From Bacteroidia bacterium (GTDB taxonomy: Bacteria; Bacteroidota; Bacteroidia; Chitinophagales; Saprospiraceae): a stretch of DNA of 64,000 nucleotides. The notes under the pieces were generated by a model. It was not told where the DNA came from. It saw nothing but the letters and a program-made list of their open reading frames with translations, and searched no databases. Every line of letters begins with the position of its first letter. Position 1 is the first letter of the stretch. Shown here in pieces: positions 3,419 through 43,335 of this stretch. Both the position numbers and the translations under genes were made by a program. The stretch is taken from positions 10,633 through 74,632 of the forward strand of contig JAUHXV010000009.1 of assembly GCA_030426765.1 (NCBI GenBank). The letters run 5' to 3'.

Positions 3419-3566
3419 CGACCCGTCTATAACGATTAAAAGGAGCGTAAAATATAGGGGTTTTAAGGGAAAATTGGCCTTTTTCTGACTGGTCCGGCGA
3501 CTTAAGGCCTCCACAACAGCAGATATCTGACATTATCCCGGAATATTGGGATGCTTTGGGTATGGA

Positions 3567-3634
3567 GCGAAGGGCAGAGAGCTTGGGTCTCCTTCGCTAA
3601 AGCTACGGCGACTGAAAGGCGTAGGGCGGAGAGC
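3567..3634. repeat. 68-nt composite block (7-mer-type GC words flanking a type A module), paralogous to 39168-39235
   Basis: gcgaagggcagagagc-ttgg-gtctccttcgctaaagctacggcgact-gaaaggcgtagggcggagagc compared with gcgaagggcggggagc-atgt-(same 27-mer)-gaaaggcatggggcggagggc. Confidence 0.9.
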
Positions 3635-3667
3635 TTAGAATGTCCTGTCTTAAGGAGATAAATCTAA

Positions 3668-3768
3668 ATCTGTCTCCAGTAAACATCCCCTTCATCCAAA
3701 GGACTGCGCCTTCTGGACAAGCGAGGGGGATCAGCCTACGGCTGAGGGGGTTCCCCGTGACCCAGAAA
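3668..3768 (-). repeat. mosaic hairpin element, long form (copy i)
   Basis: See finding 1. Contains hairpin tcagcc-tac-ggctga at 3731-3745 and the long hairpin 3685-3731. Confidence 0.9.
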
Positions 3769-3852
3769 GGCCAGTATCAAGTGTGCGGATCTCCTTCGCT
3801 AAAGCTCAGGGCAAGGTTTTGCTTGAATTTGTTTGCTGTGTGTTGCCTGATT

Positions 3853-4301
3853 CCCGCGAGCTAAAGCACAGGGCTCCCGACACATCGGGATAAAAAAAAG
3901 GAATGATTTCTACCAGGATGGTCATGCGCTTAAGCGCGACCTGATTTATCACCTCTCACTAAAATCCCTTTCAACGCATTGAAAGGCTACCATTCATGGA
4001 ATCAAATTTCCCTCGTCCCACAGATCACCTTTTAGTCGCCGTAGCTTCAGCGAAGGAGACCATCACTCCATCACTCCCCCCGAGCTAAAGCTCGGGGCTC
4101 CCGACACATCGGGATAAAAAAAAGGAATGATTTCTACCAGGATGGTCATGCGCTTAAGCGCGGACTGATTTTTTTGATCTCACTAAAATCCCTTTCAACG
4201 CATTGAAAGGCTACCATTCATGGAATCAAATTTCCCTCGTCCCACAGATCACCTTTTAGTCGCCGTAGCTTCAGCGAAGGAGACCATCACCCCATCACTC
4301 C
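3853..4301. repeat. tandem duplication, 2 x 224 bp
   Basis: gctcccgacacatcgggat at 3873 and 4097; agtcgccgtagcttcagcgaaggagac at 4034 and 4258. The copies are identical except for one 16-nt patch. Confidence 0.95.
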
Positions 4302-4307
4302 CTCCCT

Positions 4308-6131
4308 CTATATCCCTTCAGGCAGCGTGTATGTCCGGCCTTTGTTTTCTTCTTTGAGCCAGCTCATAAGCGGATCAAAATAGCGCACCATGGCGTTGGC
4401 ATTCATCTCCTGTCCGGTGGCGTCTTTCATGACGTCCTGCCAGTCGCGGGTTGCGCCGACGCGCATCATTTCGTTGAGGAATGTTCCGATTTCCTTATTG
4501 CCGAAATAATTGGTAGCGGTGGCAGGTTGCTTCAGAATATTTTCAGCGATGTGCTGGTGGAGCTGGAACAGGATGACATAGGAGAGTGCATAGTCATAAT
4601 ACTGCGCGGCGTCATTGTTGATATGTGTTTTGGTGGCTGCATCGCAGTTCACTTCTCCGCGGTCTGACGGTGGTACGATGCCCTGATATTTCTTTGCCAG
4701 TGCCCACCATTTTTTATTGAACTCATCCGGTGACAGGTTGTCTGCATACAGCGATTTTTCAAATTCACTCATGGTGCCTGCTGCAAAAGGAATGAAAACG
4801 GCAAAATTGAGGGCTTCTTTCAGCAGGATCTGGATCGAATCTGTCTTTGCATCTGCCGGTACCAGTCCACGGCCCACCAAATAGGGTTTTTGGGTCGCCG
4901 CCATGCCCATCATACTGCCTAAAGCCTCGTGGAAGGCCCTGTTAGCCCCTTCACGAAGCAGCGGGGGTACATCCGGATTAGTATACGCGATATAGTAATA
5001 GATGTGTCCTAGCTCATGGTTGGAGGTCTCAAACCATTCTGCATTGGGCTCTACACTCATCAAACTGCGCACGTCGGTGCCGAGGTCGAGGTGCCAGGCC
5101 GAAGCATGGTTGTTTTTCTTCAACGTAGAATCCACAGGATACGGATAGAGATTGGACTTCGTCCAGAAAGACTCCGGCAGAGCAGGGAAACCCAGGCTTT
5201 TATACAAGGCTTCTCCTTCGCGGATGATCCACTCCGGACTTTTATCGGCGAGTACGGCATCCACATCAAGGCCTTCTACTTCAAGCATGGCACTCCAATC
5301 CTGCCCCCATCGGTTTGGCAACCAATGTGCCGGCAGATAATCGGGGACTTCGTCGACACCATACTTTTTGGCTAGTTCATAACGCGCATAGGTGTGTAGT
5401 TCTCTGAACAGAGGACGCAACTCCTGGTTGAGACGCTCCATCATTTCCATCATCTCATCGGTCGACAGTCCATAATTGGATACCTGGTAGGAGAAGTAAT
5501 CCGGGTAGTCGAGGGCTTGCACGGTTTCATTTCTCAAACGTCGGAGATTGACGAGGCCGTCTTTGAGTTCTTTGCCCACTTCCTTACTTGCTTCCCATGC
5601 CTTGAGTCGCTCATCGAGGTTGTTTTCGGTTTTTAGAATTTCGTCGATCGTATTGGTGGTGACATCTTTGCCATCGATTTTAAAACTAAAGCCATATAGC
5701 TTTTCAGTTTGCGCGATAGAAGCAATGATTTTTTCTTTCACCAGGTCTGCTACCGTCTGCGGGTCGCTGCCTGCGAGATATAGAATTGTTTCCAGCTGAC
5801 GCACTTGCAAGGGTGTGAGTTCGTCTTTCTGCTCGAGAAATTTTCTGGTAGTTTCGATGTTTTCCACACTTCCTGTAAAGGCAGTCATGGCTTCGTCTGC
5901 GATGCGTGAGTTGTACGCATTGAGGGTATCGCCTTCCTGAATTTCGGTGTTGGTTTTCCAGGCGGCTTTGGCTGATGTATAATAGAGGTCAACGTATTTC
6001 TCTGTATAGCTATCGAGAAATGCCTGCGCTTCCTTTTGTGCGGCTGTTTCTCCTGAGGAAGAATTGTCAGAATTGCAGGCTAACAATCCTGTCAGGATAA
6101 GAGCCAGCATAAGTAGTGTGAGATTTTTCAT
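4308..6131 (-). CDS. M2 family peptidyl-dipeptidase A (angiotensin-converting-enzyme-like) lipoprotein
   Basis: NHELGHIYYYIAYTNPDVPPLLREGANRAFHEALGSMMG aligns with the ACE zinc site HHEMGHIQYY...GANPGFHEAIGD. The N-terminus has a lipoprotein signal (LTGLLAC). Confidence 0.85.
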   Translation of the reverse strand: MKNLTLLMLALILTGLLACNSDNSSSGETAAQKEAQAFLDSYTEKYVDLYYTSAKAAWKTNTEIQEGDTLNAYNSRIADEAMTAFTGSVENIETTRKFLEQKDELTPLQVRQLETILYLAGSDPQTVADLVKEKIIASIAQTEKLYGFSFKIDGKDVTTNTIDEILKTENNLDERLKAWEASKEVGKELKDGLVNLRRLRNETVQALDYPDYFSYQVSNYGLSTDEMMEMMERLNQELRPLFRELHTYARYELAKKYGVDEVPDYLPAHWLPNRWGQDWSAMLEVEGLDVDAVLADKSPEWIIREGEALYKSLGFPALPESFWTKSNLYPYPVDSTLKKNNHASAWHLDLGTDVRSLMSVEPNAEWFETSNHELGHIYYYIAYTNPDVPPLLREGANRAFHEALGSMMGMAATQKPYLVGRGLVPADAKTDSIQILLKEALNFAVFIPFAAGTMSEFEKSLYADNLSPDEFNKKWWALAKKYQGIVPPSDRGEVNCDAATKTHINNDAAQYYDYALSYVILFQLHQHIAENILKQPATATNYFGNKEIGTFLNEMMRVGATRDWQDVMKDATGQEMNANAMVRYFDPLMSWLKEENKGRTYTLPEGI

Positions 6132-6232
6132 ATCGGAAATTTATATTTCTGCGAAAGTAAAGAATTCGGAGAGCATGGCCTTTACGCTTGTCTGTTATCC
6201 GGCGGTGTTGATCGGAAATGTTGGATTTATAT

Positions 6233-6304
6233 GGGGTGATGGAGTGATGTGGTGATGTGGTGATGTGGTGATGTGGTGATGAGGTGATGAGGTGTTGGAG
6301 TGAT
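6233..6304. repeat. 8-bp tandem array, 9 units (GTGGTGAT family)
   Basis: ggggtgat ggagtgat gtggtgat x4 gaggtgat gaggtgtt ggagtgat. Confidence 0.95.
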
Positions 6305-6323: not shown

Positions 6324-6515
6324 CTCCGTGCTTTAGTTCGAGACCAGCCGAACAGGACTCTTTTAGGATGATTAAAAGTCACCTTCGCTGAAGCTATGGC
6401 GACTAAGAAGAGAATGAGGTTTTTTCCATGATCCCCGAGCTAAAGCACGGGGTAACATTTCAATTTGTGGAGGTTGATTTGTCATGTCTGCCTAACTCCG
6501 AGCTAAAGCACGGAG
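6324..6515. repeat. cluster of four GC-TRAA-GC core modules
   Basis: 6324-6342 (inverted, degenerate), 6378-6404 (type A), 6433-6452 and 6496-6515 (type B hairpins). Confidence 0.85.
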
Positions 6516-6545
6516 CTAACAGATTACCCTCGCTCAATGCACCAT

Positions 6546-6657
6546 GCCCTTCGCCCTTTGCCCTTTGCCCTTTGCTCTTTGCTCTCCGCCCTCCGCCCTC
6601 CGCTCTCCGCTCTCCGCCCTCCGCTCTTCGCCCTCCGCTCTTCGCCCTTCCCCTTTT
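6546..6657. repeat. 7-bp tandem array, about 16 units (GCYCTYY)
   Basis: gcccttc gcccttt x3 gctcttt gctctcc gccctcc x2 gctctcc x2 gccctcc gctcttc gccctcc gctcttc gcccttc ccctttt. Confidence 0.95.
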
Positions 6658-6662
6658 CCCAT

Positions 6663-6670
6663 TACCTTTG
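6663..6670 (+). promoter_or_regulatory. TAccTTTG match to the Bacteroidota -7 box, only 4 nt before the MBL-fold gene ATG
   Basis: tacctttg at 6663-6670, ATG at 6675. The spacing is too short for a normal leader, so it may be coincidental. Confidence 0.2.
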
Positions 6671-6674
6671 GCCT

Positions 6675-7316
6675 ATGGCTTTACACGTACACGGTTTTAC
6701 CTTCAATCCTTTTCAGGAAAACACCTATATCATCCGTGCAGAAAACGGGGAATGCATCATCATTGATCCCGGTTGTTTTGATGCCAGGGAACAGCAGCAA
6801 CTCAAAGCATACATTGAGTCTGCCAACCTGAAGCCGGTGCGACTGATCAATACCCATTGCCACATTGACCATGTGTTAGGAAATAAGTTTGTCGCAGAAA
6901 CATATGATCTGGGATTGGAGATGCATAAAGGTGAACTGCCGGTGTTGGAAGCGCAGGTGCATACGGCTAGTATGTATGGCATACCGTATGAGGCATCACC
7001 GATGCCGGTTTCCTTTTTGGAAGAAGGCGATACGGTCGAAATTTCAGGACATGCCATGGAAGTGCTTTTCACTCCGGGGCATTCGCCCGCAAGTATTTGT
7101 CTGTATAGTGCCGAAGAAGGTTGGGTGATCGGAGGTGATGTGCTATTTTATGAAAGTATCGGAAGAACGGATCTTCCCGGTGGAGACCATCAGACGCTTT
7201 TGCGAAGTATTCGTGAAAAATTATTTGTGTTGCCCGACGAAACGATCGTGTATCCGGGGCATATGCAATCGACGAAGATCGGGTATGAGAAATTGTTCAA
7301 TCCGTTTCTGCAGTAA
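6675..7316 (+). CDS. MBL-fold metallo-hydrolase (glyoxalase II-like)
   Basis: THCHIDH (HxHxDH) motif. The start is trimmed to Met47 of ORF 6537..7316 because the upstream 46 codons are translated 7-bp repeat. Confidence 0.85.
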   Translation: MALHVHGFTFNPFQENTYIIRAENGECIIIDPGCFDAREQQQLKAYIESANLKPVRLINTHCHIDHVLGNKFVAETYDLGLEMHKGELPVLEAQVHTASMYGIPYEASPMPVSFLEEGDTVEISGHAMEVLFTPGHSPASICLYSAEEGWVIGGDVLFYESIGRTDLPGGDHQTLLRSIREKLFVLPDETIVYPGHMQSTKIGYEKLFNPFLQ

Positions 7317-8327: not shown

Positions 8328-8428
8328 GGGCGGAAAAGAGGAAGAGAGGAAGAGGCGGAAAAGCCAATTTAATTTTTATTCAAGGATAATGCAGAAATAA
8401 AACTGCGCCTCTGCGCCTCTGCGTGCGT
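8328..8428. repeat. purine-rich GGCGGAAAAGAG-type block plus a 30-nt module identical to 23241-23270
   Basis: aaaactgcgcctctgcgcctctgcgtgcgt occurs at 8399-8428 and 23241-23270 (30/30 identical), each preceded by a gg[ca]ggaaaagag[ga]aagagg block. Confidence 0.9.
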
Positions 8429-8544
8429 ATTTATATTGCGAAGTGAATTGAGGAAAAACAGGGGTCGGGGTTGCGCCGTTCCACTGATCAACAAATCGCT
8501 CTTTGCCCTTTGTTTCATTGATACTGATATTTCTGGTTCACGTA

Positions 8545-8604
8545 GAACCCCCTCGTTCTGCGAACGATCCCCCTCGAAAAGGGGATGCATTTTCCTGGAG
8601 ACGG
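8545..8604 (+). repeat. mosaic hairpin element, short form (copy ii)
   Basis: gaaccccc-tcgttctgcgaacga-tccccctcgaaaaggggat-gcattttcctggagacgg. Confidence 0.9.
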
Positions 8605-14328: not shown

Positions 14329-14475
14329 CCTGGAGGTTGAGTTGTTGGAGCAAACTCCAACAACGGCAATTTCATTTTTTTAAAATCAAGGAACTCTAGG
14401 ACTCAGAGCTGCAGATTGGCCGATGCAAGGAGTTTGCTCCTGCGTCTCTGTGTCCATGCATCCATCCGTGCACGC
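14329..14475 (+). repeat. about 150-nt structured non-coding element, copy 2
   Basis: Same ordered blocks as copy 1. Contains a perfect 10-bp hairpin gttgttggag-caaa-ctccaacaac. Confidence 0.8.
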
Positions 14476-14487
14476 TTGAAATTTCAG

Positions 14488-15612
14488 TCAATCCTGATCA
14501 ACGAGCAGAGCCCCCTTACTAAGTTCAAAGTGTATGAAATCAGGTGAAAAACCGAACTCATTTTGATAAGAATCCGCACACCCCTCTTCAAAATCACGAA
14601 TGGCCTCTTCTTTTATCAGGCACAACACACATCCGCCAAAACCACCACCCATCATGCGCGCTCCGTACACTCCATTGTATTTGTTCGCAAAGTCAGCGAG
14701 GTGATCGAGCTCGGGGCAACTCACTTCGTACAGCTTTCGAAGCCCTTCATGAGAAGCGTTCAGTAGTTGGCCGGCAGCCTGAGGATCGTGTGTTTCAATG
14801 GCCTTTTGCATCTCCGGTACACGGTTGTTTTCTTCAATCACAAATCGGGCTCTGTTGGAAAGTGTTTGCGGAAGTTGCATCTCTTCCAACATTCCAGGTG
14901 TCACATCGCGCAAACTTTCCACTGAAGGAAATTTTTTCCTGATTAAATCAACAGCCTGTCTGCATTCATTGGACCGTTGATTGTAATTGGTATCGATGAG
15001 ATTGTGCTGCACCTTCGTGTTGATCAACATCCACCTGCCACCTGCCAAATCCACCTTAAAGTGTTGGTATTCTTTTGTTCGGCAATCGAGTAGCATGACG
15101 TGATCCTTTTTGCTCAGGAGAATCGCATACTGATCCATAATGCCTCCCTGCACACCGATTACCTCTCGTTCCACCTGGCTGGCAATAGCCGCCAGTTGTT
15201 CGCCGGTTTCCTTTCTTTTTGTTAGTTCTTTTAGCGCGAGCAGCACACCGCAAACAAGTGCGGAGGAGGAGGACATACCGGCTCCGATCGGCAGATCACC
15301 TCCGATGAGTATGTGCAAAGACCCGATATCGGGTGCGTAAGAAGTGATGGCCCCATGAATATACTTAGCCCAGGAGGGAAGTGGTGTTTCGCCTTGAATC
15401 TCCTCTCCCAGATCACTTGCTATCCAATGGTGATCTGAACTCTTTCCCACCATTACATACTGCGACTGACTTGTTGCTCCCGGCAGAACAAATCCCTGGT
15501 TGTAATCCGTATGTTCTCCGATGATATTGACACGTCCCGGCGATCGGATAATCACCTCGGGATAGGAAGGTCCGAAGTGTTGTTGCCATTTCTGTATCAA
15601 GGTGTCGAGCAT
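14488..15612 (-). CDS. galK: galactokinase
   Basis: GRVNIIGEHTDYN galactokinase signature and the GHMP kinase motif PIGAGMSSSSAL. Confidence 0.9.
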   Translation of the reverse strand: MLDTLIQKWQQHFGPSYPEVIIRSPGRVNIIGEHTDYNQGFVLPGATSQSQYVMVGKSSDHHWIASDLGEEIQGETPLPSWAKYIHGAITSYAPDIGSLHILIGGDLPIGAGMSSSSALVCGVLLALKELTKRKETGEQLAAIASQVEREVIGVQGGIMDQYAILLSKKDHVMLLDCRTKEYQHFKVDLAGGRWMLINTKVQHNLIDTNYNQRSNECRQAVDLIRKKFPSVESLRDVTPGMLEEMQLPQTLSNRARFVIEENNRVPEMQKAIETHDPQAAGQLLNASHEGLRKLYEVSCPELDHLADFANKYNGVYGARMMGGGFGGCVLCLIKEEAIRDFEEGCADSYQNEFGFSPDFIHFELSKGALLVDQD

Positions 15613-15629
15613 GTCAGTTTTTATGTTTG

Positions 15630-15918
15630 GGCCTTTTCCTCTCTTCTGCCTCTTTCTCTTTTCCGCCTAAAATGCAAATCTTTGATTTGAGACATCCCCC
15701 GAAATCCCTCGACATAAACCTTTCTGCCCTTCCGCCCTTCCGCCCTAAAATCACATGGCAGTGTTTAGGCATAGGCCTCTTCCTCTTTTCTGCCTCTTTC
15801 TCTTTTCCGCCTAAAATGCAAATCCTTGATTTGAGACATCCCCCGAAATCCCTCAACATTAAACGTTCAGACCCTCGTCATAAACCTTTCTGCCCTTCCG
15901 CCCTTCCGCCTTTCTGCC
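15630..15918. repeat. tandem duplication, about 144-bp period (second copy carries a 22-nt insertion)
   Basis: ttccgcctaaaatgcaaatc[tc]ttgatttgagacatcccccgaaatccctc at 15661 and 15805. aaacctttctgcccttccgcccttccgcc at 15715 and 15882. Confidence 0.9.
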
Positions 15919-23185: not shown

Positions 23186-23270
23186 GGGCAGAAAAGGCGG
23201 AAAAGAGAAAGAGGCGGAAGGGCAGAAAGCGTTAAAAACCAAAACTGCGCCTCTGCGCCTCTGCGTGCGT
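23186..23270. repeat. purine-rich block plus the 30-nt module (paralog of 8328-8428)
   Basis: gggcagaaaaggcggaaaagagaaagaggcggaagggcagaaagc, then aaaactgcgcctctgcgcctctgcgtgcgt. Confidence 0.9.
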
Positions 23271-23396
23271 CTTTAAAGTGCTTAGTCCAGCATAGCGGGA
23301 GAACCCCTTCGCTGTCATACCGATCGATCGAGAGCACCTTTCAGGGCTCTTCTTTTATTTGGCTGTAAAAATCACTTTCGCCGCTTCCTCTTTTCC

Positions 23397-23415
23397 GCTC
23401 CCGACACATCGGGAT
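23397..23415. repeat. hairpin module gctcccga-caca-tcgggat (third copy)
   Basis: The 19-mer is identical to 3873-3891 and 4097-4115. Confidence 0.85.
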
Positions 23416-23507
23416 CTCTTTTCTGCCCAAAGCATTACTATATCAACCGTAGAATTTATCGACAACAGCCCCCTCAATACTATTAACCGATAAACTCATA
23501 AAACGCA

Positions 23508-23515: not shown

Positions 23516-23525
23516 CTCACCAAAC

Positions 23526-23566
23526 CCTATAACCTTATAACCCTATAACCTAATAACCTTCTTAAC
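23526..23566. repeat. 8-bp tandem array, 5 units ending in TAAC
   Basis: cctataac cttataac cctataac ctaataac cttcttaac. Ends 7 nt before ATG 23573. Confidence 0.9.
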
Positions 23567-27108: not shown

Positions 27109-27311
27109 ATCTGTCTCAAGGAAAAGCATCCCTCTTCTTCCAAAGGACTACGCCTTCTGGTCAAGCAAGAGGGATCGCCCTACGGGCGAGGGAGTTCTCC
27201 GTGACCCAGAAAAACTACCCTCACTGGACGCGGAGGATCTCCGTGACCCAGCAAAGTCTTACCATCCCTCTTCCTCCAAAGGACTGCGTCTTCTGGACAA
27301 GCAAGAGGGAT
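27109..27311 (-). repeat. mosaic hairpin element, long form (copy iii), plus a partial second copy
   Basis: 27109-27212 is the full element. 27226-27252 carries a second ggag-gat-ctcc gtgacccag module. 27264-27311 is a second long hairpin. Confidence 0.9.
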
Positions 27312-28522
27312 CACCCTCCGATTTCCCCGAGCTTATTAGAAGCAACAGACCCCACATACTCCCCAATCGACAAACAAGACGTCGCCGCGGGACTCGGTGC
27401 ATTGCAAAGATGGATCATCCGCTCCTGTTCGACGATGACGTAGTCGTCTACCAGATTGCCGTTTCGATCTACGGCCTGGGCGCGGACCCCTGACCGGCTT
27501 CGGTGGATGTCTTCAGACCTGAGGGAAGGGACGAGCGTCTGCAGACTTTTTAGAAAAGCTTTTTTGGAAAAAGAGCGCTTCATCTCGTCCATACCTTTTC
27601 GCCAATGGCGTCCGGCGAGTTTTTGAAATCCCGGGTAGGTCAGTGCCTCAAATAATTCTCCGGCATGGACATCGAGGTGTTTGTACCCTTCCCTTCGGAA
27701 AGCAAGTACTGCATTAGGTCCGGCTTCTATTCCGCCGTGAATGCGTTTGGTGAGATGCACACCGAGGAAAGGGAAATTAATATCCGGAACCGGGTAGATC
27801 AGGCCTTTGACTAAATGGGTGGCATGAGGCCTTAGCGCATAAAACTCTCCTCTGAAAGGAAGGATTTGATGGGGAGGTTTTTCTCCTGCCAGTTTAACAA
27901 GAAGATCGGAATATAGACCAGCGCATCCAATGGCCATTTGACCATGTAAGGACCTGTTTTTTGTAAAAACAGTGATGCCGTCTTTGTTGGATTGGATTTT
28001 TTCAACCTTACATCCGGTAATGATATCGCCTTTTTTTGCACGTATCAATTCTGCCAGTTTCTCTGCCACTAACCGGAAATCAATGATACCGGTTTGCGGC
28101 ACCCAAATACCCTTTACGGCATGGCAATAAGGCTCCACCTCCTTAACTTCTTTTGCATCGATGATCCTGATCCCTGAGAGTCCGTTTTGAATTCCGCGAT
28201 CGTAAATCCCTTCCAGAGTAGGAATTTGTTGTTCGTTTCCGGCAACGATCACTTTGCCGCAGAGGTCAAACGGGATTTCATGTTCAGTGCAAAAGTCAAG
28301 CAGCATCCCGTAGCCTTTTACGCAATTCACGGCCTTGGCACCTCCCGGCTTGTAATAGATGCCGGAGTGAATGACACCACTGTTGCGATCCGTCTGATGG
28401 GTTGCGAGAGAGGATTCCTTTTCGACTACACAGAGCCTGAGACCCGGTTGGTTGCTAATCAACTTCCAGGCGGTCGACAAACCGACAATTCCTCCTCCGA
28501 TGATGATGACGTCGTAGTGCAT
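27311..28522 (-). CDS. lhgO: FAD-dependent L-2-hydroxyglutarate oxidase/dehydrogenase-like
   Basis: MHYDVIIIGGGIVGLSTAWKL dinucleotide-binding start. Start trimmed from ORF 28615 to cat at 28520-28522. The stop codon lies inside a repeat hairpin. Confidence 0.75.
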   Translation of the reverse strand: MHYDVIIIGGGIVGLSTAWKLISNQPGLRLCVVEKESSLATHQTDRNSGVIHSGIYYKPGGAKAVNCVKGYGMLLDFCTEHEIPFDLCGKVIVAGNEQQIPTLEGIYDRGIQNGLSGIRIIDAKEVKEVEPYCHAVKGIWVPQTGIIDFRLVAEKLAELIRAKKGDIITGCKVEKIQSNKDGITVFTKNRSLHGQMAIGCAGLYSDLLVKLAGEKPPHQILPFRGEFYALRPHATHLVKGLIYPVPDINFPFLGVHLTKRIHGGIEAGPNAVLAFRREGYKHLDVHAGELFEALTYPGFQKLAGRHWRKGMDEMKRSFSKKAFLKSLQTLVPSLRSEDIHRSRSGVRAQAVDRNGNLVDDYVIVEQERMIHLCNAPSPAATSCLSIGEYVGSVASNKLGEIGG

Positions 28523-30171: not shown

Positions 30172-30290
30172 TACTTTCTCTCTGGCATGATCCCATCGAA
30201 AAAAGAAAAGTTGAGATCAACTTCGAATGCAGGATAATATATAGCCTACAGCATATAGCTAAAAACAAAAGACCTATTTATCTTCATATC

Positions 30291-30330
30291 CTTTTAACCT
30301 TTTAACCTTTTAACCCCTTAACCGCATAAC
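30291..30330. repeat. 8-bp tandem array, 5 units ending in TAAC
   Basis: cttttaac x3 cccttaac cgcataac. Confidence 0.9.
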
Positions 30331-39149: not shown

Positions 39150-39167
39150 GTAAGCCGAGGGCAAAGG

Positions 39168-39235
39168 GCGAAGGGCGGGGAGCATGTGTCTCCTTCGCTA
39201 AAGCTACGGCGACTGAAAGGCATGGGGCGGAGGGC
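39168..39235. repeat. 68-nt composite block, paralogous to 3567-3634
   Basis: See 3567-3634. Confidence 0.9.
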
Positions 39236-39243
39236 GAAGGGGC

Positions 39244-39304
39244 GAACCCCCTCGCTCTACGAGCGATCCCCCTTAGAAAGGGGATGCCTTTCCTTGAGAC
39301 AGAT
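39244..39304 (+). repeat. mosaic hairpin element, short form (copy iv)
   Basis: gaaccccc-tcgctctacgagcga-tcccccttagaaaggggat-gcctttccttgagacagat. Confidence 0.9.
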
Positions 39305-41267: not shown

Positions 41268-41571
41268 AGTCTCCTTCGCTGAAGCTACGGCGACTGATAG
41301 TCTTCTTCGCGCAAGCTATGGAAACTAAAAGTGGATTTGATGATCTACTAAAATACTATAATCCCATGGATCAGGGAGTTTGAGAGGTTTAGAGATGTCC
41401 TCTATGACGACAAGGTTTAGGGGATTAGCTACCACTTTTGGGCAGAAAAGAGAAAGAGGCAGAAAAGCATCTGGTATAAAAAGAGACCGAGTTAAAACTG
41501 CAATTAGAATTTTTATGCCCCATGCCCCATGCCCCATGCTTTTTAATTGCCGTAGCTTCAGCGTAGGAGAC
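41268..41571. repeat. intergenic region bracketed by inverted type A modules, with a (GCCCCAT)3 array
   Basis: Type A at 41268-41294 (+), degenerate 41299-41325 (+), 41546-41571 (-). atgcccc x3.5 at 41515-41539. Purine-rich block at 41440-41468. Confidence 0.85.
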
Positions 41572-42149: not shown

Positions 42150-42274
42150 AATGCAATTGTTTAATTTGTCTCAATATTAATGCAATATGAGTTGAATGTG
42201 TTTCATTTGAATTGATATTATGTCAAAATAAACTTAAATACTACTTTTAAGGTCAAATCGTATAAATCAGGGAT

Positions 42275-43199: not shown

Positions 43200-43277
43200 A
43201 TATGTCCGATCCTCATTGCCCGAGAAAAAAATATTAAAAATTTTGCTAATGACGAGAAATTAGTCATAAAATGTCTG

Positions 43278-43285
43278 TATATTTG
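43278..43285 (+). promoter_or_regulatory. candidate -7 promoter box (TAtaTTTG) for recA
   Basis: tatatttg lies 50 nt upstream of ATG 43336. Confidence 0.4.
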
Positions 43286-43335
43286 CCGAAGCACTTTGGA
43301 TCAACCGAATATATTAATCATCAAAATCTAACAAA

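Follow-up and report, generated by a model that had tools for sequence, protein, structure and literature searches.

Which kind of sequence recurs, in almost identical form, between the genes of a Saprospiraceae bacterium, and how does it spread? This question is raised by a 64,000-nucleotide stretch of contig JAUHXV010000009.1 (assembly GCA_030426765.1, positions 10,633 to 74,632), which is the whole of the DNA analyzed here and is called the window below. It derives from a Bacteroidota genome of about 47% G+C that encodes sorting domains of the type IX secretion system (T9SS), and the named homologues of its proteins belong to Saprospiraceae. A first-pass annotation had described short intergenic modules in it, divided into a type A and a type B, which were united in one superfamily by a GC-TRAA-GC core and compared with the mosaics of repetitive extragenic palindromes (REPs) and bacterial interspersed mosaic elements (BIMEs). 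When the modules were followed into about 100 loci of other genomes (numbered L001 onward) and into genome collections, type A proved to be an undescribed family of very small hairpin repeats with an almost identical core in several phyla. We give a probability of roughly one half to the view that type A represents non-autonomous mobile DNA of very small size that is read as a folded single strand.

Type A copies in the window

The type A 27-mer GTCTCCTTCGCTRAAGCTACGGCGACT has seven matches with at most three mismatches in the window (3587+, 4034-, 4258-, 6378+, 39188+, 41269+ and 41545-), as against none in 100 shuffles, and the covariance model R1 recovers the same seven copies at E <= 1e-9, so that the modules can be taken as real. 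Together with weak partial R1 matches at 41305-41320, 3790-3814 and 3466-3511, the window contains seven strong and two or three degenerate type A copies. The octamer GCTRAAGC occurs 14 times, compared with 3.15 expected, and 12 of these occurrences lie within type A or type B modules. Every copy of either type is located outside the long open reading frames (ORFs), i.e. in about 11% of the window, which bears out the earlier description of the modules as intergenic. It had also been stated that both types occur in both orientations and are mixed with other modules. This holds too, since both orientations are present and the spacers are mosaics that include at least 10 other repeat families as well as 7-8-nt tandem repeats, and the likeness to BIME/REP mosaics is apt as a description of such modular intergenic spacers. 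Most of the earlier coordinates stand, except that 41268 and 41546 were off by one (41269 and 41545). All sites of the earlier count were found, but as positions 3853-4302 are a tandem duplication, the copies at 4034 and 4258, and likewise those of type B at 3854 and 4078, do not count separately, and the 14 copies come down to about 12 independent ones.

The strong copies fall into subtypes. A1, with a TAAA loop, comprises 3587 and 39188, both within a 77-nt composite; A2, with a TGAA loop, comprises 4034, 4258 and 41545, which have the inner flank TTTTA and the outer flank CATCAC in common; and A3 comprises 6378 and 41269, both preceded by TGATTRAWA. The same three pyrimidine-pyrimidine mismatches recur among the window copies. 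With respect to the genes, type A follows stop codons in co-orientation at two independent sites (three copies, one of them from the 224-bp repeat at 3853-4302) and stands upstream of start codons in antisense orientation at three sites (four copies, at 3587, 39188 and 41269/41300).

Anatomy and folding of the type A unit

A type A unit consists of a 26-nt imperfect palindrome and a conserved 3' tail YRAAGG of 5-6 nt, 31-32 nt in all, with the consensus (G)GTC-N-CC TTCGC TRAA GCTAY GGCGAC(C) + YRAAGG. The search pattern had left some positions free, and these too are conserved: the 5' end is GGTC, and the tail reads C/T-G/A-A-A/G-G-G in 45-62 of 72 copies. Conservation is thus not confined to the GC-TRAA-GC core and spans about 32 nt including the tail, which is complementary to the CCTTCG of the left arm.

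The window copies fold weakly, at -5.9 to -7.0 kcal/mol (z = -1.26). Position 4 is a paired G in most single copies and a mismatched T in the amplified lineages, which are the window, Flavipsychrobacter and a second Saprospiraceae metagenome-assembled genome (MAG); the form with G at this position has a fully paired GTCGCC stem and is stable (-15.5 to -16.1 kcal/mol, z about -3.4). Two mismatch columns fail to pair in every one of the 60 distinct copies compared, which come from many genomes. Read on the top strand, they are T.C or T.T, and C.T (C.C or C.A in 2 of 60), and the common forms on the bottom strand are G.A and A.G. The outer stem covaries, with GTCGCC/GGCGAC being replaced by GTAGCC/GGCTAC in L005 or by ACCACC/GGTGGT in L030, the middle pair T-A is changed to A-T in L005, L085 and L102, the first and last loop bases are T..A, C..G or T..G, and the two bases next to the stem on its outer side are G-C (23 copies), G-T (9) or A-T (6). 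The first-pass annotation had taken type A for a recognition sequence rather than a plain hairpin. In view of the weak fold in the window and the mismatch columns that never pair, this reading is reasonable, but the stem covariation elsewhere indicates that the hairpin matters as well. The counts of G-T (24) and A-C (34) are similar and show no strand asymmetry, so that neither strand appears RNA-specific, which fits an element that acts at the DNA level; choosing the folded strand by its wobble pairs was dropped for the same lack of asymmetry.

Other structural ideas were rejected. A mimic of a tRNA minihelix or RNase P substrate, in which stem and internal loop would stack to 12 layers, has no NCCA after it, and an H-type pseudoknot between tail and left arm would have loops of zero length, which is geometrically impossible, so that the tail can form only an alternative hairpin. 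Two orthologous Chitinophagaceae spacers of about 90% identity (L003 6050-6560 and L005 6850-7250) contain four type A copies each. One of these copies differs at 7 of 26 positions between the two, with four paired substitutions inside the hairpin, and the changes in stem, middle pair and loop ends are all mutually compensatory, which suggests either replacement by another subfamily or selection on the fold.

Tandem arrays, insertion and nesting

Neighboring copies within 120 nt of each other are direct in 22 pairs and inverted in 3, and the direct spacings are 30-32 nt or multiples thereof; arrays of 1-5 units are found in the Flavipsychrobacter MAG. This head-to-tail order does not correspond to the paired inverted arrangement known from REP doublets forming hairpins (REPINs), which had been proposed as a check. 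The array junction CGAAGGA-TC-TCCTTCG is a perfect palindrome. An array of clustered regularly interspaced short palindromic repeats (CRISPR) was also considered and rejected, as 26-nt repeats that recur every 31-32 nt are separated only by a conserved linker of 5-6 nt.

A filled and an empty site are provided by a Saprospiraceae MAG, in which a repeat of about 250 nt has three paralogues. One of them (L026) contains an extra 31-nt unit that the others (L032 and L043) do not have, and this unit, CTCTCC...GGCGACCGAAG, sits in the loop of the hairpin GTTCTTTTTT-GCGG-AAAAAAGAAC. The flanks of single copies also tend to pair with each other, with 8.8 pairs compared with 6.8 +/- 0.8 in permuted controls (0 of 20 permutations reach 8.8), and L015, L020, L023, L011 and L074 are clear cases. 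Longer palindromes with type A at the apex occur in other genomes, and their flanks differ. Several loci (Table 1) have the type A core at the tip of a rod-like palindrome of about 200 nt, with the helices TGCAATAG/CTATTGCA, GAATCAG/CTGATTC and CATAGC/GCTATG and with differing gene contexts; this palindrome has no match in Rfam and is either an element akin to miniature inverted-repeat transposable elements (MITEs) or a structured RNA. Nesting is seen in the window as well, where the units at 3587 and 39188 lie inside GGGCGRA tandem repeats. In the metagenome JACCDQ01, paralogous type A-bearing repeats (L054, L087, L104 and L106 versus L059, L064 and L084) differ by a 21-nt hairpin (TGTCTGCC-NNGC-GGCAGACAC) directly after the type A tail, which is a second example of tiny hairpin modules that come and go.

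Absence from syntenic relatives

For the M1 peptidase encoded beside three of the window copies, homologues outside the same strain do not exceed 76% identity; contigs of that strain carry identical modules and end at the repeats. In the syntenic relatives L050-L052, the order MarC - M1 peptidase - UDP-glucose dehydrogenase is kept and the M1 peptidases are 73-76% identical. Neither type A (at most 6 mismatches, or by the covariance model) nor type B (at most 4 mismatches) is present in these three loci, the spacers of which contain other 8-nt tandem repeats and modules instead (e.g. L051 5490-6000 and L052 5726-6000). Persistence of the modules in close relatives with conserved flanking genes, on which the first-pass annotation had made its proposal depend, is therefore not observed. 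At 42160-42204 and 43225-43331, the window and these relatives have regulatory spacers that retain 88-93% identity, so that a conserved functional site should have stayed recognizable. The absence from the nearest syntenic relatives argues for a lineage-specific expansion of a mobile element and not for a conserved regulatory site, and the window itself is an ordinary, lineage-specific expansion.

When the intergenic sequence of the window was compared with the other 100 loci, type A was the sole shared module, apart from one match of 29 nt. That match, with 93% identity, connects window positions 14341-14369, which belong to the window repeat family 11617/14316, with L037 621-649 of the second Saprospiraceae MAG, and it is the only cross-genome intergenic match besides type A.

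Distribution beyond this genome

One genome per species from GTDB (185,579 genomes, 596 Gb) was scanned for the exact 22-nt core CCTTCGCTRAAGCTAYGGCGAC. The core was found in 46 stretches from 27 species genomes, compared with about 0.3 chance matches estimated for 596 Gb, and the window's own genome is not among these 27. According to the record titles, 17 of the carriers are Bacteroidota (Chitinophagales, Saprospirales, Flavobacteriales, Cytophagales and Bacteroidales), including the isolates Niastella soli, Aequorivita vitellina and Aureibaculum; four belong to the candidate phyla radiation (CPR; Levyibacteriota, Moraniibacteriota, Yanofskybacteria and Minisyncoccia), four are Proteobacteria, and one each is assigned to Acidobacteriota (Ca. 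Angelobacter) and Kiritimatiellae. A scan of metagenomes added 53 core stretches, and 89 independent contexts remained once near-identical flanks had been removed.

No family of Rfam 15 covers type A or type B, at gathering or permissive thresholds, in the window, in its region 3500-4320 or in 26 related loci. The other Rfam results were chance matches and, unrelated to type A although on metagenome contigs that carry it, an nhaA-I riboswitch (L102 613-668) and two fluoride riboswitches (L071 8968-9037 and 11802-11869). A literature search with the exact type A sequences returned no matching papers, and searches for repeats of Bacteroidetes or Saprospiraceae led to general REP literature only.

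Junctions with tRNA-Ser and other gene contexts

In six loci (Table 1), type A is antisense to a tRNA-Ser gene and is separated from its 3' end by exactly 4 nt (TTCG); these genes have different anticodons and come from different organisms. L088 (2481-2672) has type A between tRNA-Arg and tRNA-Ser, just 5' of the tRNA-Ser gene. A tRNA-Ser gene thus adjoins type A in 7 of the 89 independent contexts, far above its share of intergenic boundaries. CCGC(C) precedes TTCG and the hairpin in seven cases, the tail together with the tRNA-Ser end (CGAAGGCG) is an 8-nt complement of the type A left arm, and the tRNA-Ser-linked GTCGCC copies are stable, some of them being followed by 3-4 T. An origin of type A from a tRNA-Ser 3' end was considered, as the A1 flank GGCGGAGAG resembles the complement of the acceptor end, and was rejected because the similarity is too short. 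A tRNA scan of the window detected no tRNA genes.

The copies in other genomes are nearly all intergenic, and convergent contexts are commoner than divergent ones. Neither an all-against-all BLAST of the neighboring ORFs nor a Pfam scan of 139 neighbors revealed a recurrent neighbor gene family, or a transposase or integrase that recurs beside type A. The terminator scan called none of the window copies, the weak hairpins of which lack a T run, and on the minus strand of the 224-bp unit a separate terminator-like hairpin comes after the A2 copy. In the Flavipsychrobacter MAG CAZBAP01, type A is part of a composite (Table 1) that consists of a leader hairpin ATGATAGTACGGATT.C.GTCTATCAT followed by AGTTTG, 1-5 type A units and a trailer CAATTCAGTGGTTGTTG...CAACAA. 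These composites are mostly located 100-280 nt upstream of genes for T9SS-sorted proteins (Por_Secre_tail), in co-orientation with them, and in L034 two composites bracket two small ORFs.

A possible mobile hairpin and its alternatives

The anatomy, the distribution, the insertion-deletion difference and the context statistics given above are direct observations. A sharply bounded unit that occurs both in tandem and dispersed, a pair of filled and empty sites, nesting in hairpins and tandem repeats, a patchy presence with a core nearly the same in distant lineages, no linked gene and no strand-specific RNA signature together point to a mobile element. On this view, type A multiplies inside its host genome as a discrete unit that is inserted between genes, and also by local head-to-tail duplication. 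It is often seen in the loop or at the tip of a pre-existing hairpin or palindrome, within short tandem repeats or directly past tRNA-Ser. The never-paired mismatches, the apex and the tail may form the recognition surface of a folded single-stranded hairpin that would be read by an enzyme acting in trans. The mobilizing enzyme, the single-stranded intermediate and horizontal transfer, i.e. an occasional crossing between distant lineages, we infer from the pattern. The most plausible candidate for such an enzyme would be a single-strand DNA transposase of the HUH/Y1 type, since enzymes of this class recognize irregular hairpins with short guide segments of complementary sequence. Consequences for the host, for instance hairpins in the 5' or 3' untranslated regions (UTRs) and terminator-like caps after tRNA-Ser, would then be by-products or secondary co-options. 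A bolder version of this scheme, which we consider rather unlikely, is that type A is the first recognized example of a mobile hairpin of about 32 nt that spreads horizontally across phyla (Bacteroidota, CPR/Patescibacteria, Proteobacteria, Acidobacteriota and Kiritimatiellae), targets hairpin loops and tRNA-Ser 3' ends and is moved by an undiscovered widespread enzyme or by ubiquitous host replication or repair.

Several points weigh against a mobile element. Stable single copies of the GTCGCC form occur at convergent gene ends and 4 nt past tRNA-Ser with short T runs after them, which looks like a terminator function for the host. There is a single clean pair of filled and empty sites, and it comes from another genome than the window. 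The relatives that were compared are at genus level (73-76% protein identity), so that the absence of type A from them could partly reflect loss. The phyla of the MAG contigs rest on record titles, which the cluster names merely repeat, and as to a vector between phyla, type A was found in 0 viral contigs and 0 phages, and in plasmids without a credible match (a single partial one, E 0.9, lies inside a coding gene). Also no mobilizing enzyme was identified: phmmer searches with IS200 TnpA and YafM queries, which are of limited sensitivity, detected no Y1 transposase in the window or in 53 metagenome loci.

The main rival explanation, to which we would give a minor chance, sees type A as a selected RNA hairpin, i.e. 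a terminator, a barrier to 3'-exonucleases or a processing signal, with a conserved protein attaching to its apex and to its invariant internal loop (G.A / U-A / A.G on the bottom strand). It draws on the stable folding of the GTCGCC variant, on the fixed spacing and orientation of the tRNA-Ser junctions, several of which continue into TTT, on the excess of convergent over divergent contexts, on stems that covary around invariant mismatches, and on the Flavipsychrobacter arrays that stand behind a conserved leader and in co-orientation upstream of T9SS cargo genes. In the window, however, the orientation relative to transcription is variable, and the variant found there is weak, has no U tract and is followed by a separate terminator-like hairpin. 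G-U pairs are not in excess over A-C on either strand, and the absence from close syntenic relatives, the very patchy occurrence (exact core in 27 of 185,579 species genomes) and the lack of an Rfam match speak against this explanation as well. Both may be true for different copies, with single copies having been co-opted as terminators. Alternatively, a chromosomal protein (as gyrase, IHF or Pol I on BIMEs) or a site-specific recombinase might use type A as a double-stranded or cruciform site. Such a site would function in either orientation, and it would agree with the conservation of non-pairing positions, with the palindromic array junction and, if exchange occurred at the apex, with a chimera of types A and B at 3789-3814 that is joined at the shared apex GCTAAAGC. 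We regard such a site as improbable, since the compensatory stem changes indicate an intramolecular hairpin and not a duplex reading, the patchiness and the absence from relatives misfit a conserved chromosomal protein, and no recombinase or integrase recurs nearby.

It is equally improbable, in our view, that type A is a true REP/REPIN family that owes its mobility to a cognate REP-associated tyrosine transposase (RAYT) with its gene in another part of the genome. Such a family would also consist of short imperfect extragenic palindromes of high copy number in mosaics, type A has a GTAG on its bottom strand (GCC-GTAG-CTT), and in the genome with most copies a frameshifted RAYT gene (L019 2183-2734; NCBIfam REP_Tyr_transpos, E 1.9e-21) is located 117 nt from a type A array, on a contig that ends in type A arrays on both sides. 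This RAYT gene has its own perfect 28-nt inverted repeats (GGTCGAAGCGTCTCGCTTCGTC; CCCACTGGTCGAAGCGTCTCGCTTCGTC), however, which are unrelated to type A and occur nowhere else in the loci or the window, and the only other Y1 match in the window and the roughly 100 loci is an unrelated IS200 in L028, 5.5 kb from a copy. Moreover, the GTAG is internal and partly paired instead of forming an unpaired terminal tag, and the neighbors are direct rather than inverted, whereas head-to-tail dimers are rare in REP families (PMC3733652). As a terminal GTAG and inverted doublets are absent and no cognate RAYT was found in the window or the loci, type A appears to lack three of the four defining features and is probably not a member of the REP/REPIN/BIME group. 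Passive local duplication or slippage in repeat-rich spacers, with no dispersal of its own, has least in its favor: the 224-bp repeat explains two of the seven strong type A and two of the five type B copies, head-to-tail arrays do occur, and 7-8-nt tandem repeats flank many copies, but identical units stand 35 kb apart in different contexts of the window, the same core occurs in unrelated genomes, and a discrete 31-nt unit was inserted into a paralogous repeat. The dispersed identical copies and the cross-genome matches largely refute this explanation, and we give it hardly any weight.

Comparison with known repeat families

In kind, type A belongs with REP/BIME, the CGTC-tagged REPs, the Neisseria intergenic mosaic elements (NIMEs) and the cyanobacterial small dispersed repeats (SDRs), and it differs from them by its head-to-tail arrays, the fixed internal mismatches, the tail complementary to the left arm, the association with tRNA-Ser and the near-identical core across phyla. 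The REP, BIME and REPIN sequences of E. coli and Pseudomonas are likewise imperfect palindromes of 20-40 nt, strictly extragenic and of high copy number (PMC2817692, PMC3116915), and type A resembles them as a short extragenic palindrome with seven or more copies in 64 kb, all outside ORFs. Both occur in intergenic mosaics with other motifs near gene ends, and both are regarded as tiny mobile DNAs that are recognized in the form of single-stranded hairpins. Type A lacks an unpaired GTAG tag at its terminus, as its GTAG lies inside the bottom-strand arm (GTCGCC-GTAG-C) and its termini GGTC...GACC pair; it is repeated head to tail with a period of 31-32 nt, whereas REPs form alternating or inverted doublets; no flanking cognate RAYT was found; and the conserved 3' tail complementary to the left arm is peculiar to type A. 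Also REP sequences are species- or genus-specific, in contrast to the type A core, which is nearly identical across phyla.

The CGTC-tagged REPs (Di Nocera et al. 2013, PMC3733652) are small palindromes of several phyla including Bacteroidetes, and like type A they have loops of 4-5 nt and short conserved tails, are without a dedicated transposase and are sometimes nested in longer palindromes or mosaics. They are defined by a terminal CGTC (or TGTC/CCTC) tag, a stem of 8-9 bp that starts with A-T pairs and a CCA tail, and they occur mostly as head-to-head dimers (PMC3733652). The type A consensus has neither the CGTC tag nor the A-T stem base nor the CCA tail, and the fixed internal mismatches are its own.

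The families SDR4-6 of Nostoc/Anabaena (Elhai et al. 2008, Genome Res 18:1484) are reported to be intergenic repeats of 21-27 nt with hallmarks of mobility. They occur in one genome but not in its relatives and are found embedded in other repeats, heptamer tandem repeats among them, and no transposase is known for them. Type A is similarly tiny, patchy, intergenic and nested, being shorter than 35 nt, a discrete unit that is present or absent (L026 versus L032/L043) and embedded in repeats, and the window pairs 7-8-nt tandem repeats with tiny modules. It belongs to another phylum, however, has another sequence, and possesses the tail, the tandem arrays, the tRNA-Ser link and the cross-phylum spread. 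In Neisseria, NIMEs (RS units flanked by dRS3) resemble the window in that long intergenic regions are composed of interchangeable modules bounded by small inverted repeats. The dRS3 unit has 20 bp with 6-bp terminal inverted repeats and is an integration site of phages or insertion sequences. This role is that of dRS3, and the sequences differ from type A. By sequence, dRS3 belongs to the CGTC-1 family (PMC3733652).

The ends of IS200/IS605 elements and their miniature derivatives, the palindrome-associated transposable elements (PATEs), are imperfect hairpins with fixed irregularities that are recognized as single-stranded DNA, as type A may be. A further likeness is the short flank complementary to an internal segment, as in guide/cleavage-site pairing, together with a short target that is not duplicated. 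Type A differs in being one hairpin of about 32 nt instead of two different ends and in having no linked TnpA/TnpB, and the likeness of mechanism is conjectural. In contrast to MITEs, which have 100-500 bp, terminal inverted repeats and a target-site duplication and derive from insertion sequences, type A has 31-32 nt and no consistent flanking duplication.

Type B hairpins and the mosaic spacers of the window

Type B (CCCCGAGCTAAAGCWCGGGG) is found at 3854, 4078, 6433 and 6496, with 0 expected, and including a degenerate copy the window contains five type B hairpins, all between genes. Folding confirms the perfect 8-bp stem that had been described for 4078-4097, and the change between 6433 and 6496 is indeed a compensatory one. 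No type B-like hairpin was detected among the roughly 100 other loci, and type B is a second, genome-specific hairpin family with the same apex as type A. Of the proposed GC-TRAA-GC superfamily, this common apex of 8-9 nt and one chimera of an A-type left and a B-type right part can be retained, and there is no further support. The chimera is suggestive of recombination or template switching at the shared apex, as judged from its sequence, so that type B may have recombined with type A at least once, but apex and chimera do not establish a common descent of the two types. Together with many other modules, both types make up a BIME/NIME-like intergenic mosaic in this genome.

Among these other modules, each copy of the 224-bp repeat holds a type B and an A2 copy, a CTCCCGACACATCGGG hairpin, a GCGCTTAAGCGC palindrome and a terminator-like hairpin CCTTTCAA..TTGAAAGG, and tandem repeats of the GGAGTGATG type lie at the junction of the duplication. 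At least five further module families of the window (18-120 nt) were not found in the other roughly 100 loci. The 7-8-nt tandem arrays that flank or enclose the modules have the units GGTGATGT, GCCCTTC/GCCCTCC, TTCCGCCC, AACCTTAT, CCTTTTAA and ATGCCCC. One of them (6546-6655) falls inside the predicted 5' end of the ORF 6537-7316, the true start of which is probably later, as its Pfam match starts at residue 58. ATGCCCC or TGCCCCAT repeats adjoin type A both in the window (41515-41545) and in the Flavipsychrobacter MAG (L006/L024/L033/L034).

Table 1. Coordinates of type A, type B and associated features in the window (numbers alone) and in loci of other genomes (L numbers)
Feature	Position	Strand	Remarks
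Type A unit A1 (TAAA loop)	3587..3619	+	26-nt imperfect palindrome 3587-3612, tail TGAAAGG; exact match; R1 54.9 bits, E 2.6e-14
77-nt composite with A1 unit in GGGCGRA-type short tandem repeats	3558..3634	+	Repeat family D11; paralogue of 39159-39235, 86% identity
Type A unit A2 (TGAA loop), tail TAAAAGG	4028..4060	-	In first copy of 224-bp tandem repeat; R1 53.3 bits
Type A unit A2	4252..4284	-	Duplicate of 4028-4060 via 224-bp repeat; 24 nt past M2 peptidase stop, co-oriented
Type A unit A3 (GTCACC...GCTATGG, 2 mismatches)	6378..6410	+	Divergent spacer between M2 peptidase and metallo-beta-lactamase-fold genes; R1 48.5 bits
Type A unit A1	39188..39220	+	27-mer identical to 3587-3613; about 53 nt upstream of UDP-glucose dehydrogenase start, antisense; R1 52.8 bits
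Type A unit A3	41269..41299	+	First of head-to-tail dimer, period 31 nt; R1 50.8 bits
Degenerate second dimer unit (GTCTTCTTCGCGCAAGCTATGGAAAC, 6 mismatches)	41300..41330	+	Repeat family D6; R1 partial match, E 0.44
Type A unit (3 mismatches)	41539..41571	-	15 nt past MarC stop, co-oriented, beside ATGCCCC tandem repeat; R1 39.2 bits
Possible type A 3' fragment (GGCGACTTAAGG), weak	3496..3511	+	R1 match 3466-3511, E 0.38
Type B hairpin (2 mismatches)	3854..3873	+	First copy of 224-bp repeat
Type B hairpin, perfect 8-bp stem	4078..4097	+	Second copy of 224-bp repeat; -15.6 kcal/mol, z -5.5
Type B hairpin	6433..6452	+	Pattern match
Type B hairpin, compensatory C-G to T-A change relative to 6433	6496..6515	+	Pattern match
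Degenerate type B (4 mismatches)	6324..6343	-	Mismatch search
Chimera of type A left arm and apex (ATCTCCTTCGCTAAAGCT) with type B-like right arm (CAGGGC)	3789..3814	+	From sequence; R1 partial match
224-bp tandem duplication, 2 copies, 95%	3853..4302	.	Repeat family D2
82-nt intergenic repeat	3687-3768, 27131-27212, 27267-27348
53-nt intergenic repeat	8545-8597, 39244-39296
Intergenic repeat	8399-8444, 23241-23286
CTCCCGACACATCGGG repeat	3874-3891, 4098-4115, 23399-23416
Intergenic repeat family	15610-15876
7-8-nt tandem arrays flanking or enclosing modules	6231-6294, 6546-6655, 15631-15918, 23523-23560, 30290-30323, 39158-39177, 41515-39
tRNA-Ser-linked type A	L001 650-766; L038 4052-4167; L063 199-313; L086 493-602; L095 3865-3977; L100 3441-3555
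CAZBAP01 composite	L007 1130-1380; L034 5120-5260, 5950-6170; L019, L024, L025, L029, L039
Rod-like palindrome of about 200 nt, type A core at tip	L057 1890-2085; L070 2122-2317; L077 14482-14656; L090 4935-5164 (= L094)

Significance

Few parts of bacterial genomes are as poorly understood as small extragenic palindromes, and the type A family is a handle on their origin and movement. The surprising parts of the finding are the cross-phylum spread and the mechanism of movement. As REP families normally differ between genera, a core that is near-identical from Bacteroidota to CPR is unexpected. The unit is sharply defined (26 nt plus tail, with a period of 31-32 nt), and the discrete unit in a hairpin loop and the recurrent tRNA-Ser junction are evidence of insertion. 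On the practical side, the repeats break short-read assemblies, as contigs L047 and L019 end at them. If type A is indeed mobile, it would be a tractable substrate with which to search for the enzyme that acts on elements of this size, and cultured carriers exist. If it moves across phyla, it would represent a class of mobile DNA below the size of all those whose mechanism is known.

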